Part shown: one piece after another, positions 8,652-15,857 of the stretch
How the letters are laid out: every line of letters starts with the position of its first letter
Position numbering within the stretch: position 1 is the first letter of the stretch
From: Candidatus Methanomethylicia archaeon
GTDB lineage: Archaea > Thermoproteota > Methanomethylicia > Culexarchaeales > Culexarchaeaceae
DNA: 64,000 nt
Reading direction: 5' to 3'
Assembly (NCBI GenBank): GCA_038727515.1
Contig: JAVYVS010000001.1
Coordinates: 192,001-256,000 of the forward strand
The notes under the pieces: model-generated
Databases searched by the model: none
What the model saw: the letters and a program-made list of their open reading frames with translations, nothing else
What the model was told of the DNA's origin: nothing
Position numbers and translations under genes: made by a program

Positions 8652-9515
8652 ATGAGGTTGACTGTGGATTTTGTTAAGTATCATGGATGTGGTAATGATT
8701 TTATAGTTGTAGATGAATTGGATGGTGAAGTTGTTCCTGAAAAATTTAAAGGTTTATTTTCAATGAAGGTTTGTCGTAGAAGGTTTTCTATTGGTGCTGA
8801 TGATGTTCTATTTATTGTTCCCTCCACGTGTGGTGCTCATGGTTTTATGAGGGTTCTTGAGCCTGATGGTACTGAAGCTGAAATGTGTGGTAATGGTTTA
8901 CGTTGTGTAGCCAGTTACTTATCTGAGAAATTTAATTTAAATGAATTGAAAATTGAAACTAAAGCTGGAGTTTTAAATGTGTGGAAGGTTGAAGATGGAT
9001 GGTTTAAAGTGAATATGGGTGTACTAAGGAAGACTTTTGGGGAATTGAAAAATTATGTTAATCTAAATTTTAGGGATGATGAAGAATTAATTGCTAAACG
9101 TTTAAAACTCCCATTACTGGGTGAAATTGAATTATCAATTGTTAATACCGGCGTCCCACATGTTGTAGTCTTTGTAGATGATGTAGATAAAATTGATTTA
9201 AACCTATATGCTGAAGCTATTTCAAAAAATAAAACATTATTTCCAGAAGGTATATGTGTGAATGTTGTTGAAGTTTTGAATGATCATTCCATTAAGGTTA
9301 GAACTTATGAAAGTGGCGTTTGGGATGAAACTTATGCTTGTGGAACTGGATCTACTGCTTCAGCTGCAGTAGCATATATACTTGGAAAAATTAAAAGTAG
9401 AACTGTTGATGTACATGTTCGTGGAGGATTACTAAAAATTATTGTTGATGACCCGTTATATATGATTGGACCTGTAGAAAAAGTTTTTACAGGTAGAATA
9501 ACTATTGAAATCTAA
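8652..9515 (+). CDS. dapF: Diaminopimelate epimerase (DapF)-family PLP-independent racemase; substrate pocket atypical
   Basis: KYHGCGNDF, EMCGNG, GVPH, ETYACGTG with both catalytic Cys. Several DAP-binding residues are substituted (see findings). Confidence 0.8.
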   Translation: MRLTVDFVKYHGCGNDFIVVDELDGEVVPEKFKGLFSMKVCRRRFSIGADDVLFIVPSTCGAHGFMRVLEPDGTEAEMCGNGLRCVASYLSEKFNLNELKIETKAGVLNVWKVEDGWFKVNMGVLRKTFGELKNYVNLNFRDDEELIAKRLKLPLLGEIELSIVNTGVPHVVVFVDDVDKIDLNLYAEAISKNKTLFPEGICVNVVEVLNDHSIKVRTYESGVWDETYACGTGSTASAAVAYILGKIKSRTVDVHVRGGLLKIIVDDPLYMIGPVEKVFTGRITIEI

Positions 9516-9541: not shown

Positions 9542-10234
9542 TTATTTGCTTTTCTTCATGTAATCTAATGCTACTGCCACTACTAATGCTATTGCTGCTA
9601 TTACACATACGTATGGAGCTGGGTATGTGAAGTATAGGAATCTTATTCTCCCAATGAATAATGAAATTCTACTCATAATTGTTAATCCGAAGCTTCCTCC
9701 AAACCCTGCTACAAGAGTGTATCTACCAATTTTAGCCACAGTGTTTAATGGTCCTTTAAATTCTGCTGTGAAGTAGAAGTAGAATAATGCTGTTAATACT
9801 CCTATTGCCACTAATACTCCATCCAATGGCTTTGGTAGTAGGACTACTGTAGTTGTAGATTCACTTATTGTGGATCTAATTTGTTCAAGGAATTGCGTTT
9901 TTATGTATCTTGCCACTATTGTTCCAATGCTTGTTCCTAATACTATGGCTGTTGGATACCTGTATAGGTAGAAGTATTTTCTTGTGAAGAAGAAAATGTA
10001 TAGTAATCCAATTGGTACTGTTAGCCACCACCACCATTGCCCTTTAGAAACATAATCATAGAGGTATACCCATGCTGTGTCTACACTTATTAGTGTTGTA
10101 TATGCTGCAGCGGCACCCATGTATGCATGTTCTGCAATTCTGAAAAACCTATTTTCCTTGTAAAGCCAACTGAATAACATTAACGTTATTCCAGCGGCAA
10201 CTATCGTTACTATAGTATCCATACTTAGGGACAT
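9542..10234 (-). CDS. Uncharacterised polytopic membrane protein (4th gene of DUF6754 module)
   Basis: About 6-7 hydrophobic segments, YKENRFFRIAEH; abuts the upstream gene. Confidence 0.75.
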   Translation of the reverse strand: MSLSMDTIVTIVAAGITLMLFSWLYKENRFFRIAEHAYMGAAAAYTTLISVDTAWVYLYDYVSKGQWWWWLTVPIGLLYIFFFTRKYFYLYRYPTAIVLGTSIGTIVARYIKTQFLEQIRSTISESTTTVVLLPKPLDGVLVAIGVLTALFYFYFTAEFKGPLNTVAKIGRYTLVAGFGGSFGLTIMSRISLFIGRIRFLYFTYPAPYVCVIAAIALVVAVALDYMKKSK

Positions 10235-11077
10235 TTACATCCTCCTCCTAGATAGGAAGTATCCTATATTCCCAATTATTATGAAGATTACCGTTACTAG
10301 ATGTCCTAGGGATTGAGCATCCATTCCTGCTGCACCTTCTCCAGGTCTTTTAACTAGGATCTCGTATTCTGCTGCACCTCTCAATCCATTACAGAATCCA
10401 ACTATTTTATCTGGGTAGTATGGGTACATTCTTGAGACTAGTACTGCTCCTACAGCTCCACCAACTTTTGTTCCATAGACATCTGTGAGTTGTCTAACAA
10501 CCCAGTCTACTGAGCTGTTTCCGAAGTATATTGCTATTGCCCAATCTTTTGCTGTTCCTGTGGGTAGGTCTTGGAAGAATGGCATTTTCTTTAAATCATT
10601 GCCATATGCATCTTTACCTGTATAGAATACGTCTGCTGCTAATGCTGCTAATCCAACCTCATATTGTGGTATATATCCTAAATTAACATATTTCTTTCCA
10701 TAGTCTGGATGATCATTTGAAGCTCCTAAAATTGTTTTCATGGTTGATTCTATATATGGTACAGCTTCTGTTCGTGCTGCAAAGAATAAAACCCTTAAAC
10801 CTTTATTTACACAGTGTTGGAAAATTGCAAGTTCTGAGGGGTAGCATTCTGCTGCTGCAGCTGGGCTTTGATCATCTATAAATACTACTATGCTTCCTGG
10901 TGGAAGTTTATCTAGGAAGTTGTATAATCCAAGTGTTTCTGCACTATATTTTCCAAGGGGGATTCCTATTGGCCTCAGTATTGGTACGCTTACTGCTATC
11001 CAAACTAATAGGTATATATATCTTACATCTATGTTTTGTATTTTCTCCCATATTGTTTCTGGTTTTTTACTCTCCAC
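10235..11077 (-). CDS. Uncharacterised membrane-anchored alpha/beta-domain protein (3rd gene of DUF6754 module)
   Basis: N-terminal TM, soluble domain (YVNLGYIP, GLRGAAEYE), C-terminal TM after GMDAQSLGH. GTG start at 11077 follows a G-rich SD. Confidence 0.75.
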   Translation of the reverse strand: MESKKPETIWEKIQNIDVRYIYLLVWIAVSVPILRPIGIPLGKYSAETLGLYNFLDKLPPGSIVVFIDDQSPAAAAECYPSELAIFQHCVNKGLRVLFFAARTEAVPYIESTMKTILGASNDHPDYGKKYVNLGYIPQYEVGLAALAADVFYTGKDAYGNDLKKMPFFQDLPTGTAKDWAIAIYFGNSSVDWVVRQLTDVYGTKVGGAVGAVLVSRMYPYYPDKIVGFCNGLRGAAEYEILVKRPGEGAAGMDAQSLGHLVTVIFIIIGNIGYFLSRRRM

Positions 11078-11726
11078 GACCCATCCACCCCCTCTCATAT
11101 CCTAAGAGCATTCGTACATATAGTGCTAAAGTGGCCAGTAATCCTGATATTATTATAACTCTTGCTTCTGCTCTAACCCAAACGTTATTTACCCAATCTT
11201 TTAGCGGCACGAATCCAGGCCATATGAGTTCTCCTATTGGTGCATTTCCAAGCATTGCTATTATTCCAGCTAATAATAGTACTGTTGCTTCTACACTTCT
11301 AGCTCTAAAGGCTCTGTAGGCTGCTGAAGCTATGAAGAATACTAGTATAGAGTATATTGTCGAATCTCCTGGTGCTACTATTGCATTGAATACTTGAGTT
11401 ATGCTTGGTTCTACTGATGGTTTTATCCCTTGGAATGCATATCTAGCTAATCCCCATACTAATGGTACCCATAAGCATATGAGTAATACCCAGCTTTCAA
11501 TTCTTTTAGGTTCTCTTTGGATCCTCCTTGCGTGAATCCTGGTTAATAGTGTTACTGAAATTATTGCTGCAAAAGTTCCAATTATTGCCTGTGCCTTCCT
11601 AATATCTGCTGCCAGATTATTTATTGTTGGTTGTAGTACAAGTGTATCCATTGCTGTTATAAATGTTAAGATTACCATAATCATCCATGGTATATATCTT
11701 CTAATGACTATTGACATTTCATTCAT
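11067..11726 (-). CDS. Uncharacterised polytopic membrane protein (2nd gene of DUF6754 module)
   Basis: About 6 TM segments; FFIASAAYRAFRARSVEATVLL..MLGNAPIG. Confidence 0.75.
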   Translation of the reverse strand: MNEMSIVIRRYIPWMIMVILTFITAMDTLVLQPTINNLAADIRKAQAIIGTFAAIISVTLLTRIHARRIQREPKRIESWVLLICLWVPLVWGLARYAFQGIKPSVEPSITQVFNAIVAPGDSTIYSILVFFIASAAYRAFRARSVEATVLLLAGIIAMLGNAPIGELIWPGFVPLKDWVNNVWVRAEARVIIISGLLATLALYVRMLLGYERGWMGRGE

Positions 11727-11730
11727 CCCC

Positions 11731-12510
11731 CTATATATTTAATAGATCATAAAACCATCTATTTCCAAATGCCCAGAATATTAATCCAATTATTGTTAAT
11801 GCTAATCCAATTAGCCTTATAATGTCTTGTCCAAATATTGTCCCTATTTGTTCTGGCGTTCCTGCAACATAAGCTCCTGCAGTTATTAATTCTTCACTTA
11901 TTAATGTGTAGTCGCATGTGGCTATGAAGAATGGTATTTGATAGCTATTTGTTGTTCCAGCTATTTGTATTGCTCCAGCTCTAAATCCTGCTTCAGCTAA
12001 TATTAGTGATTCCGCTGCGAAGTATCCAAGTAATAGGTTTGCAGCAACTTTTTCTCTAAGTATTAATCCCATGGCTCCACTGGCGTATGCAAATTGCCTA
12101 TTGGAGAGCCATATAACATTTTCAGGTCTAAATTCATCTGGTTTTCCAGCCATTGTATATGCATTTTTAATTAAGTCTCTGGCAACTGGTTCTACTGTTG
12201 GATCTGAAAATGTAAATAGGAATCTAACACCATATTCTGCACATTTTTTAGCTACGTATTGGCATATACTTAATCCTGCAATGACCTGTGTATCTCCAAC
12301 TCCACCTAAACCAACTGTGTAATGTACTGGTCTACCCATTTCAGTGGCTCTGCCTATCGCTTCATCCAGGGCATCCATCCCTGGAAGTTTCCTAATTTTT
12401 GGTTTAATTACACCCTTCTTTGTAAAGTAGACCGCTAGGAATATTATGATTATTGAAGCAATGAACATCACTGTGGAACCAATATAGGTAGACCTAATAC
12501 TTAAACTCAT
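11731..12510 (-). CDS. DUF6754-domain membrane protein (1st gene of module)
   Basis: IRKLPGMDALDEAIGRATEMGRPV, FAAESLILAE, QIPFFIATCDYTLISEEL recognised as the DUF6754 signature; terminal TMs. Start moved to ATG 12510. Confidence 0.75.
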   Translation of the reverse strand: MSLSIRSTYIGSTVMFIASIIIIFLAVYFTKKGVIKPKIRKLPGMDALDEAIGRATEMGRPVHYTVGLGGVGDTQVIAGLSICQYVAKKCAEYGVRFLFTFSDPTVEPVARDLIKNAYTMAGKPDEFRPENVIWLSNRQFAYASGAMGLILREKVAANLLLGYFAAESLILAEAGFRAGAIQIAGTTNSYQIPFFIATCDYTLISEELITAGAYVAGTPEQIGTIFGQDIIRLIGLALTIIGLIFWAFGNRWFYDLLNI

Positions 12511-12636
12511 GTATGACTCTCTCCTTAAAACTTTTTCAAAAATGTAGTTCTCGTATATTTTTCTCAACTAATAGCTATTTATATTTTTCCTAAATTTTTC
12601 AAATTTTTTTCAATGAAAAGTTTAAATGAGTAAATT

Positions 12637-13508: not shown

Positions 13509-15857
13509 TTGGATAAATTGGCTGGGGCTTTTAAGGTTAGGGTTGTTGGGATTGTTCAGGGGGTTGGCTTTAGACCATTCATATATAGGCTTGCCAAGAG
13601 GCTTGGTTTAAGGGGGTATGTGGTGAATCTTGGGGGTAGTGAAGTTGAGATTCACGTTGAAGGTGTTGATAGGGTTGGGCTGGAAAGATTTCTGGAGGCT
13701 ATGGAGAGGGAGAAGCCTCCGAGAACGGTGATAGAGAGGATAATGGTAATAGAGGTAGACTCAGAGGGGTACATGGACTTTAAAATACTGGAGAGTAAGG
13801 GGGAGATTGCATCTAGAAGCATGATTCCACCAGACACATCCATATGCGATGACTGTGTAAAGGAGATTCTAGACCCAAACAATAATGGTAGATTCTATGG
13901 GTATCACTGGAATAGCTGCGCATGGTGTGGACCTAGATTCTCCATGATGTATAGAACACCCTACGACCGTGAAAACACCTCCATGGGGAAATTCAAGCTT
14001 TGCAGTGAATGCGCTAAAAGCTACAGTGACCCCGAGGATCTAAGGAGGTTTCATGGGCAGGGGATAAGCTGCTTGAAATGTGGACCTAAAACCCATGTTT
14101 ATGGTATGGATGGATTGAGGATTGAGGTTGAGGATCCAGTGGAATTCGCTGTAAAGGTGATTTTGGAGGGTGGATTCATAGCTTTAAAGGGTGTAGGTGG
14201 ATTCCACATTGCATGTTTAGCTTCAAGGGATGATGTGGTGGCTGAATTGAGGAGGAGGAAGAAGAGGCCTCAGCAGCCCTTTGCATTGATGGCTAGAGAT
14301 TGGAGTGTGGTTTTAAGGCTTGTGGATCCACCTTTAGAGGCTAGAGGGCTTTTGGAGGGTCCACGGAAGCCTATACTAGTACTCCCCAAAAAATTGGGTG
14401 CACCAGTTTCAGAGCTTGTTGCACCTGGACTCTCCACCCTCGGGGTTATGCTCCCCTACACCGGCTTCCAAACCCTACTTTTAAATGGGATTCCAGAAGG
14501 CTTCCTAATTATGACTAGTGGGAATAGGAGTGGGAGACCTATGTGTACAAGTCTTGGCGAAGCTCTTGTAGAGCTTCGTGGAATAGTGGATTACATTGTG
14601 GATCATGAGAGGGAGATCGTGCATAGAGTGGATGATAGCGTGTTAAGGTTTACTGATGGTAGACCAGTCTTCCTCAGGAGGGGGAGGGGTTATGCTCCTG
14701 AATGGGTGGAGGTAGGCTTCAGAATCGTGGAGGCAGCGGCTGTGGGAGGTGAACTTCAAAGTGTGGGTGGAGTTGGATTTGAGGATAAGATTGTTTTAAC
14801 ACAGTTCATTGGGGATGTGGATGAACCAGCCCAGCTATGGAGTTTAGAACGTGAATTAAAATGGCTTATAGAGGTTTATGGGCTTAAACCTAGGATAATA
14901 GCCTTAGATATGCATCCACAATACTCCAATAGGCTGGTGGCGGAAAGGCTAGGTGAAACTTATGGTGCTAGGCTAATTGAAGTTCAACATCACCATGCCC
15001 ATGCAGCCACTGTAATAGGCGAATTAAAGGCTGAATCAAGCGAGAGGTTTATGGCTATAACCATTGATGGAACCGGATATGGTGAGGGAGGGGAAATCTG
15101 GGGTGGAGAAATACTATTGGCATCCCTGGAAAGCTATAAGCGTGTGGGAAGCATAAAACCCTTCACACTGCCAGGTGGAGATACAGCTGCAAGACACCCA
15201 GCAAAAACATTGGTAAGCCTATTAGCCTCAAATGGATACAGTGAGGAAGAAACCATTGAAATCCTATATAGACATGGAGTCATAGATGGATTCCCCCATG
15301 GAATAATAGAGGCGAAACTAACCCATAGATTAGCAGCCTCCAAAAGAGGATTTAAAACCTCAAGTCTAGGCAGGATTCTAGACGCCTTCTCCACACTCCT
15401 AGGAGCATGCAAAGAGAGAACCTATGAGGGGGAGCCAGCAATAAAACTTGAAGCCCTCGCAGACAATGTAAACCAGCCACCCATAGACCAAGAACCAAGA
15501 ATAACCATGGGTGAAAACAGACTCCTAATAGATGTAAAACCCCTATTGGAATGGACACTGGAAAACCTCAACACCATAGAAAAGGGTAGAATAGCCTTAA
15601 CCATACAATACAACCTCGGAAAAACCCTGGCGAAAACAGTCCTAGAAGCCTTAAAGGGGAGGAGAAACATTAGAAGAGAAGTAATAGTAAGTGGAGGAGC
15701 AGCAGTAAACACCCACATAATCAAAGGAATAAAAAGTATACTGAGAAAAGAAGGACTAGAGGTAATCCTACCATCAAAAACACCACCAGGAGACGGAGGA
15801 ATAGCCCTAGGACAAATACTAGTTGCATCTAGTGTAAACTTCAAATCCCAAATTTAA
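13509..15857 (+). CDS. hypF: [NiFe]-hydrogenase maturation carbamoyltransferase HypF
   Basis: Acylphosphatase domain GIVQGVGFRPF, two CxxC-x18-CxxC-type Zn fingers, KGVGGFH, QHHHAH, DGTGYG, PPGDGGIALGQ. Confidence 0.96.
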   Translation: MDKLAGAFKVRVVGIVQGVGFRPFIYRLAKRLGLRGYVVNLGGSEVEIHVEGVDRVGLERFLEAMEREKPPRTVIERIMVIEVDSEGYMDFKILESKGEIASRSMIPPDTSICDDCVKEILDPNNNGRFYGYHWNSCAWCGPRFSMMYRTPYDRENTSMGKFKLCSECAKSYSDPEDLRRFHGQGISCLKCGPKTHVYGMDGLRIEVEDPVEFAVKVILEGGFIALKGVGGFHIACLASRDDVVAELRRRKKRPQQPFALMARDWSVVLRLVDPPLEARGLLEGPRKPILVLPKKLGAPVSELVAPGLSTLGVMLPYTGFQTLLLNGIPEGFLIMTSGNRSGRPMCTSLGEALVELRGIVDYIVDHEREIVHRVDDSVLRFTDGRPVFLRRGRGYAPEWVEVGFRIVEAAAVGGELQSVGGVGFEDKIVLTQFIGDVDEPAQLWSLERELKWLIEVYGLKPRIIALDMHPQYSNRLVAERLGETYGARLIEVQHHHAHAATVIGELKAESSERFMAITIDGTGYGEGGEIWGGEILLASLESYKRVGSIKPFTLPGGDTAARHPAKTLVSLLASNGYSEEETIEILYRHGVIDGFPHGIIEAKLTHRLAASKRGFKTSSLGRILDAFSTLLGACKERTYEGEPAIKLEALADNVNQPPIDQEPRITMGENRLLIDVKPLLEWTLENLNTIEKGRIALTIQYNLGKTLAKTVLEALKGRRNIRREVIVSGGAAVNTHIIKGIKSILRKEGLEVILPSKTPPGDGGIALGQILVASSVNFKSQI

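Follow-up and report, generated by a model that had tools for sequence, protein, structure and literature searches.

Among the closest described relatives of the system reported here are two protein families. Pfam DUF6754 (PF20539; model length 257 positions, gathering cut-off 27 bits) is an entry to which no function has been assigned, and the GlmL/MutL proteins are methylaspartate mutase accessory proteins. Our literature search found no paper describing DUF6754/PF20539, the four-gene unit that contains it, or the actin-fold (ASKHA) protein that accompanies it. We analysed a 64,000-nt stretch of the genome of a Candidatus Methanomethylicia archaeon from a hot spring (GCA_038727515.1, contig JAVYVS010000001.1, positions 192,001 to 256,000; hereafter the window), in which four coupled open reading frames (ORFs), named A1, B1, A2 and B2 in the order of transcription, occupy positions 9542-12510, all on the minus strand. 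The results showed that A1 is a full-length, high-scoring member of DUF6754 (E 7.6e-83, 278 bits, model positions 11-254), and that the Pfam entry covers A1 only, since B1, A2 and B2 matched no Pfam or NCBIfam family, DUF6754 included. The locus is a real copy of a widespread, undescribed system. We propose, tentatively and with confidence a little short of even, that the four genes encode the substrate-specific membrane unit of a modular uptake system, which would be served by a shared actin-fold module acting on the cytoplasmic domain of A1.

A preliminary description of the window had presented the locus as four tightly coupled genes, and the junctions that it gave were all recovered, namely a 4-nt gap between A1 and B1, an 11-nt overlap between B1 and A2 (32 nt if A2 starts at an alternative ATG instead of GTG), and a 0-nt gap between A2 and B2. 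The arrangement agrees with our working definition of a cassette, in which the order A1-B1-A2-B2 is found on one strand with short gaps or overlaps. Searching the 1.59-Mb metagenome-assembled genome by tblastn with the four proteins revealed eight cassettes, all in this order and with 25-80% identity, and no conserved fifth gene was found beside them. In one cassette, A1 (C1:633963-634778, locus L013) contains an in-frame TAA that leaves ORFs of 149 aa and 101 aa, the other three genes being intact; this A1 gene is a pseudogene unless the assembly is wrong at this point. Among public sequences, the nearest to A1 (98% identity) is labelled Candidatus Methanomethylicia archaeon, relatives of A1 form more than 7000 protein clusters at 90% identity, and DUF6754 gave at least 598 matches in species-representative genomes. 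Eighty loci kept from other genomes were scanned with hidden Markov models made for the four families. The order A1-B1-A2-B2 was kept in every sufficiently long locus among these 80, which came from Bathyarchaeia, Bacillota including Symbiobacterium, WOR-3, Eisenbacteria, Poribacteria, Cloacimonadota, Zixibacteria, Armatimonadota and others. These results showed that the four genes have been inherited, duplicated and diverged as one block, and the strict synteny expected of an uncharacterised four-gene unit was found wherever the contig allows. Recurrence to this extent goes far beyond chance.

The unit is accompanied by a second, separately encoded module. The preliminary description had mentioned a GlmL-like ASKHA ATPase beside similar clusters and had stated that no such gene was present; this is correct for the window but not for the genome, which contains exactly one Pfam MutL match (619 aa, E 1e-121, 404 bits; C1:553926-555782, locus L018:5924-7783, minus strand), about 350 kb from the cassette. 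The match spans residues 20-493 of this protein, whose C-terminal end is lengthened by an additional region of about 125 aa. Directly downstream lies the gene of a 384-aa partner with weak RnfC_N barrel-hybrid, KOW and biotinyl-like signals, followed by genes for a DppA-like M55 aminopeptidase and LysA. A 148-aa protein encoded upstream is conserved only within the order, and was rejected as a member of the module because it showed no match to the small proteins that bacteria encode at the corresponding place. The ASKHA gene and its partner lie immediately next to the cassette in about 20 of the 80 loci.

Among 301 genomes of the window's phylum, DUF6754 was detected in 10, comprising all 8 of the window's order (3-8 copies each), one distant genome, and one with a contig-end fragment only. 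A long-form ASKHA protein was found in the nine genomes whose DUF6754 match is full and in no others of this sample, always as one copy; its identity is 87-95% among members of the order and 68% for the distant genome. The same pattern was observed in 251 genomes from the phylum of a Symbiobacterium metagenome-assembled genome (locus L034), where full-length ASKHA matches above 600 bits were present in the 19 strong DUF6754 carriers and in no other genome; the remaining ASKHA matches there were short GlmL-like proteins of 150-195 bits, plus one partial match of 457 bits. In both phylum samples, then, DUF6754 carrier genomes always also hold the long-form ASKHA protein and its partner, and the ASKHA link mentioned earlier is substantiated by both adjacency and co-occurrence (nine of nine and 19 of 19 carrier genomes). 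The genome studied here likewise has the cassette together with the long-form (about 600-aa) ASKHA protein and the barrel-hybrid/KOW partner, and in this archaeon and its order there is one ASKHA module for 3-8 membrane units. As a separate observation, bacterial carriers (Bacillota loci L022, L025, L034, L046 and L069) often have two or more long-form ASKHA genes, with up to 7 matches per genome, and two ASKHA genes sometimes flank the cassette in one locus; the archaea have a single copy.

To describe the four proteins, structure models, alignments and family searches were combined. The AlphaFold2 models of A1 and A2 (pLDDT 95.1 and 95.3, respectively) present the same order of elements, which are a transmembrane (TM) helix, a lead-in helix, a doubly wound beta-alpha Rossmann-like domain of about 190 aa (about residues 32-218 in A1), and a long C-terminal TM helix. 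Alignment-averaged hydropathy gave 6 TM segments for B1 and about 7 for B2. Both the layout of a TM helix, an alpha/beta domain and a TM helix that had been proposed for the first and third genes, and the polytopic nature proposed for the second and fourth, agree with these results. The nearly invariant residues of A1 (G67; G162 to E167; G185-T186; G205-E206-E207) follow strands beta1, beta4, beta5 and beta6, at the edge where Rossmann-like domains usually bind ligands. The alignments further revealed a conserved FIASAAYRAFRAR motif and an invariant R189 in B1, conserved His259 and Asn270 in the C-terminal TM helix of A2, and invariant E35, F153, F155 and G179 in B2. Searches of Pfam and NCBIfam at E <= 1 found no match of the four proteins to permeases of the tripartite ATP-independent periplasmic (TRAP), tripartite tricarboxylate (TTT) or phosphotransferase system (PTS) types (DctQ/DctM, TctA/TctB, EIIC/EIID). 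Neither the cassette proteins nor the ASKHA module matched ABC_tran or BPD_transp, so the unit does not belong to the ATP-binding cassette (ABC) or energy-coupling factor (ECF) importers. Foldseek searches of PDB returned generic Rossmann-like matches only (best E 0.015 for A1 and 3e-4 for A2), profile searches of PDB sequences found no relative of A1, A2, B1, B2 or the ASKHA protein, and the 384-aa partner gave only a faint KOW/NusG match (E 0.06) against PDB sequence profiles. The Pfam, NCBIfam, Foldseek and PDB profile searches thus bear out the view of the unit as one without counterpart among known transporters, respiratory complexes or solved structures.

The orientation of the two soluble domains was predicted from the numbers of lysine plus arginine residues (K+R) in the 15 residues flanking the TM helices. 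For A1, the mean K+R was 5.3 on the domain side vs 2.0 on the terminal side, the domain side being richer in 93 of 94 sequences; for A2, it was 3.15 vs 5.21, the terminal side being equal or richer in 76 of 84. Because this bias is opposite in A1 and A2 across the family, the A1 domain is predicted to be cytoplasmic with both termini outside (N-out TM helix), and the A2 domain to be extracytoplasmic with both termini inside (N-in TM helix). About 1300 longer forms of A1 carry PQQ beta-propeller, FN3, PKD or Ig domains at the N- or C-terminus, and these fused domains of extracytoplasmic type at either terminus corroborate the predicted A1 orientation independently of the K+R bias. Fused or longer forms of A2 were also sought, and the lack of any is weak evidence; no A1-MutL fusion was present among the best 120 long A1 forms. 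From hydropathy and the K+R profile, B1 reads N-in and C-in and B2 reads N-out, so that A1/A2 and B1/B2 both look mutually inverted within the membrane. The preliminary description had placed both soluble domains over the same membrane face, and this arrangement is contradicted by the opposite bias and by the domains fused to A1. The predicted cytoplasmic domain of A1 shows the highest conservation within the unit (majority fraction 0.66; paralog identity 42.6% vs 32-34% for the other subunits), and the predicted outer domain of A2 the lowest (majority fraction 0.46).

The fused domains also bear on another explanation, in which the unit is an envelope or surface machine, for example an exporter, a flippase or a complex that assembles or anchors a polymer, lipid or protein at the surface, and in which the ASKHA protein would be the cytoplasmic motor or chaperone. 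Many A1 proteins of bacteria bear large extracytoplasmic domains of the beta-propeller, PKD, FN3 or Ig type, and such domains typify proteins that belong to the surface or bind polymers. However, a housekeeping biogenesis machine is not usually present in 3-10 diverged copies per genome, no recurrent glycosyltransferase or envelope genes stand beside the cassettes, and the unit is present in archaea and bacteria despite their very different envelopes. We therefore regard an envelope machine as unlikely.

An ancient duplication of an A-B pair had been proposed to explain the alternation of the two kinds of subunit. BLASTP gave no match between A1 and A2 or between B1 and B2. Profile alignments were then compared by hhalign on paralog-only and on deep alignments, with block-shuffled and reversed alignments as controls. 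A1 and A2 aligned over 63 columns (P 0.008, score 26.1) in structural register (A1 50-120 with A2 53-121), and 4 of 60 block-shuffled A2 alignments scored as high; for B1 and B2 (P 0.03, score 20.9), the reversed B2 alignment scored above the real one. A1 and A2 have 13 of the top 50 fold representatives in common, and the fold is of a generic Rossmann type. Since the hhalign scores do not rise clearly above the shuffled or reversed controls, we make no claim of duplication. An A/A' and B/B' duplication is plausible, with a sequence similarity in no clear excess over the controls, and the common architecture of A1 and A2 is the sole point in its favour.

Two readings depend on such a duplication. 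According to the preliminary description, the unit is a parallel heterotetramer arising from an A-B duplication, with both ligand-binding domains on one face, no ATPase, and amino acids or peptides as substrates. The common order of structural elements in A1 and A2, their 13 common fold matches, and the weak hhalign alignment in structural register speak for it; the opposite predicted orientation of A1 and A2, a similarity that does not clearly exceed shuffled controls, and the obligate co-occurrence with the ASKHA module speak against it. This model is already contradicted on orientation and on ATPase independence, and we consider it the least probable of all the readings, with very little chance of being right. 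The second reading keeps the duplication and reverses one half. It describes an antiparallel pair of A-B modules, duplicated and flipped, in which one Rossmann domain would face outward for the substrate and the other inward for the ASKHA protein, so that the whole would be a transporter of a new class, primary-active or nucleotide-gated, with an ASKHA protein as its power source in place of a P-loop ATPase. It is a minority possibility in our judgement, well below an even chance.

The ASKHA protein was then compared with its characterised relatives. It scored below the NCBIfam cut-offs (in parentheses) for GlmL NF040745 with 209.5 bits (475), Or-4 NF040744 with 207.8 bits (600), and glmL_fam TIGR01319 with 143 bits (204), and judged by these scores it is a member of Pfam MutL (PF13941) only and not GlmL proper. 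Its mean identity is 59% across bacteria and archaea, and the bacterial copies are 51-68% identical to that of the window's genome. In the alignment, the phosphate-1 motif (DxGSTTxK) and the adenosine motif (GxGG) are invariant. The phosphate-2 motif is GVGLGGATTN in all nine archaeal copies aligned vs GVDIGGATTD in all 15 bacterial copies, both aspartates being replaced.

When the ASKHA protein was folded jointly with residues 33-220 of A1, the ipSAE values were 0.59, 0.57 and 0.59, the best of 3 controls being 0.00, and the result was graded as weak support. At least 90% of the contacts agreed between runs, with a partner pLDDT of at least 83. The pass mark was met by 58 of 80 solved complexes and by 2 of 110 mismatched pairs; scores of 0.60 or less went with only 7 of those 80 solved complexes and with both of the mismatched pairs that passed, and these benchmark counts hold roughly, as the alignments were self-supplied. 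Since no solved relative exists, the score is not the recall of a known complex. The model suggests, at the level of weak support, that the ASKHA protein may dock on the A1 domain.

These properties of the ASKHA protein would also fit transport coupled to metabolic trapping, in which the membrane unit transports on its own, by a secondary or facilitated mechanism, and the ASKHA protein is a cytoplasmic enzyme or chaperone on A1 that modifies the substrate or hands it on, as in the hydantoinase/oxoprolinase or the GlmL-type reactivase branch. The MutL relatives (404 bits for this protein) are enzymes or reactivases and not transport ATPases, the archaeal copies have lost both phosphate-2 aspartates and are still 65-68% identical to the bacterial ones, the conserved A1 residues stand at the ligand-binding positions of a Rossmann domain, and the weak docking support would suit an enzyme on A1 as well. 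On the other side, a single enzyme would need very broad specificity to serve eight diverged units with variable outer domains, the protein is under the GlmL, Or-4 and glmL_fam cut-offs, and no mutase or hydantoinase partner genes were seen beside its gene. On balance, trapping seems to us possible but improbable.

The degenerate catalytic motif of the archaeal copies is likewise compatible with a sensor, in which the A2 outer domain senses a ligand and the A1 inner domain relays the signal to the ASKHA protein as a nucleotide-dependent switch. Such a relay would suit two domains that lie, as predicted for A1 and A2, on either side of the membrane. However, neither the cassette nor the module nor the recurrent neighbours showed an output domain of the kinase, methyl-accepting chemotaxis protein, GGDEF or DNA-binding type, and two polytopic subunits with 13 TM segments exceed the needs of a sensor. 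We hold a sensory role to be very unlikely.

The genes around the cassettes were surveyed for hints at the substrate. The flanks of the eight cassettes contain S49, M28 and M20 peptidases, an amidohydrolase, a DUF885 protein and an S-Me-THD-like protein, plus unrelated genes. Recurrent neighbours in other genomes are OppD/F-like ABC ATPases (8 loci), S9 peptidases (5 loci) and GcvP (5 loci). Although this 93.6%-complete genome is rich in peptidases and encodes about 23 ABC ATPase domains, no SBP_bac_5 (Opp/Dpp-type) peptide-binding protein was found in it. The preliminary description took the neighbouring racemase as a clue to amino acids or peptides. The gene of this racemase, DapF, abuts the cassette at window positions 8652-9515, and it was rejected as a functional partner: it is adjacent to a cassette only within the same taxonomic family and at one of the eight cassettes here, being absent from the other seven, and since its adjacency is so limited it is a local passenger. 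This restriction also counts against the parallel, ATPase-free model. The ASKHA module is flanked by the DppA-like M55 aminopeptidase and LysA across the order; in the relatives from this order, LysA (458 bits, cut-off 298) and the DppA-like M55 D-aminopeptidase follow the module (L018:2567-4694). DapB was not found in the genome, and two DapA-like matches were borderline. The set of LysA, M55 peptidase and DapF without DapB may reflect the salvage of diaminopimelate-containing peptides instead of de novo lysine synthesis. Directly upstream of another DUF6754 cassette, genes for a biotin-carrier protein and an OadA-like carboxyltransferase (PYC_OADA) were observed in the same direction with a 66-nt gap (C2:283981-285877; L113:3482-5378). 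A transporter lead from Thermofilum pendens was dropped, as the literature search gave nothing relevant. Our best guess for the substrate is peptide- or amino-acid-derived compounds, for which the evidence from gene context is weak and mixed.

Taken together, we tentatively prefer a modular uptake system for the following reasons. The four genes are inherited as a block, they co-occur with the ASKHA protein, one module stands against many diverged units, and A1 and A2 are predicted to be oppositely oriented. The weak docking support counts on the same side, as does the gene context, with peptidases or amidohydrolases beside several cassettes, no SBP_bac_5 protein found in the genome, and the M55 aminopeptidase and LysA around the module. 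In such a system, B1 and B2 would form the path through the membrane, the variable Rossmann-like domain of A2 would select the substrate outside the cell, and the very conserved Rossmann-like domain of A1 would serve in the cytoplasm as the docking site of the shared actin-fold module, which, docked on A1, may drive or gate uptake. The combination of a conserved A1 inner domain with a variable A2 outer domain is in keeping with a docking face shared by the units on the inside and a specificity that varies on the outside. Several points weigh against this proposal. Transport itself is a deduction, since none of the components is similar to a known transporter; a pore or binding site is not seen, the structure models covering A1 and A2. 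The co-occurrence among related genomes is not statistically independent, and the same pattern is present in two domains of life. ATP hydrolysis by the ASKHA protein of this archaeon is doubtful, because both phosphate-2 aspartates are lost from the archaeal copies aligned. The docking grade is weak. The neighbours of the eight cassettes are heterogeneous, with no substrate-related gene consistently linked, and the synteny of LysA and the M55 peptidase with the module is restricted to close relatives and 2 of the 80 other loci.

The features of the locus are listed in Table 1. A Shine-Dalgarno-like motif, AAGGAGAGAG, sits 6 nt upstream of the A1 ATG, and GAGGGGGTGGA stands ahead of the A2 GTG start. 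The oligo-T tract behind B2 overlaps the end of the convergent dapF gene. At the scale of the window, the AT skew changes from about -0.3 at 1-12 kb to +0.4 to +0.5 at 16-34 kb, and the GC content rises to 0.45 at 14-16 kb, where an ORF of 782 aa (13509-15857) is located; both the flip of the skew and the rise in GC probably reflect a purine bias of the gene strand.

Table 1. Genes and putative signals of the DUF6754 cassette (window positions).
Feature	Position	Strand	Basis
A1, DUF6754 protein, 259 aa from ATG at 12510	11731-12510	-	ORF and Pfam
B1, polytopic membrane protein, 219 aa	11067-11726	-	ORF, alignment, hydropathy, K+R profile
A2, 280 aa from GTG start	10235-11077	-	ORF
A2, alternative ATG start at 11098, 287 aa	10235-11098	-	ORF
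B2, polytopic membrane protein, 230 aa	9542-10234	-	ORF, alignment, hydropathy profile
Putative archaeal operon promoter, A/T-rich, two TATA-like boxes (ATATAAATA 12584-12576; AAATATA 12560-12554)	12551..12591	-	Sequence reading, inference
Putative archaeal terminator, oligo-T tract CTTCTTTTTATTTTTT right after B2 stop codon	9514..9530	-	Sequence reading, inference

Members of the DUF6754 family, none of which has been studied, occur in archaea and in at least a dozen bacterial phyla, for the most part in anaerobes that are uncultured, and the cassettes make up as much as 1.5% of a small genome. If the ASKHA link is one of energy coupling, the system would represent a new way of powering membrane transport and would fill an unexplained gap in the feeding of many uncultured peptide-fermenting microbes. 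The system is within experimental reach, as the metagenome-assembled genome at locus L034 belongs to Symbiobacterium thermophilum and has a cassette next to the ASKHA module. A cultured strain of S. thermophilum exists.

The ASKHA protein resembles GlmL/MutL and Or-4 in its MutL match and its phosphate-1 and adenosine motifs, but differs from them in its scores below the NCBIfam cut-offs, its extra C-terminal region of about 125 aa and its link to a membrane cassette; it differs from GlmL/MutL also in that no mutase gene lies near it and in the loss of the phosphate-2 aspartates from the archaeal copies. The Rossmann-like domains recall RCK/KTN domains (TrkA, KtrA, MthK) and the dIII domain of transhydrogenase, which appear in a flat list of fold matches mixed with short-chain dehydrogenases/reductases, sirtuins, phosphoglycerate kinase and GT-B halves; no sequence similarity to RCK/KTN or dIII and no conserved dinucleotide-binding motif was found in the cassette domains. 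In inverted-topology pairs such as the small multidrug resistance proteins of EmrE type (YdgE/YdgF) and Fluc/CrcB, the partners are clearly homologous small TM proteins, whereas A1 and A2 each carry a 190-aa soluble domain, predicted on opposite faces, with a similarity in no clear excess over controls; common to both are adjacent genes with opposite K+R bias (here A1 N-out/A2 N-in and B1 N-in/B2 N-out). A parallel in logic is offered by systems with a shared energiser, which include group II ECF transporters, the PTS with EI/HPr and many EII permeases, and ABC importers with tethered binding domains. To our knowledge, the actin/Hsp70 fold, the presumed fold of the putative energiser, is not known to drive any solute transporter. 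No ABC, EcfT, EII or HPr domain is present here and no relation in sequence or fold to those systems was detected; what the DUF6754 system appears to have in common with them is one conserved cytoplasmic module, scattered and diverged membrane units, a variable outward domain, and a conserved inward docking domain.

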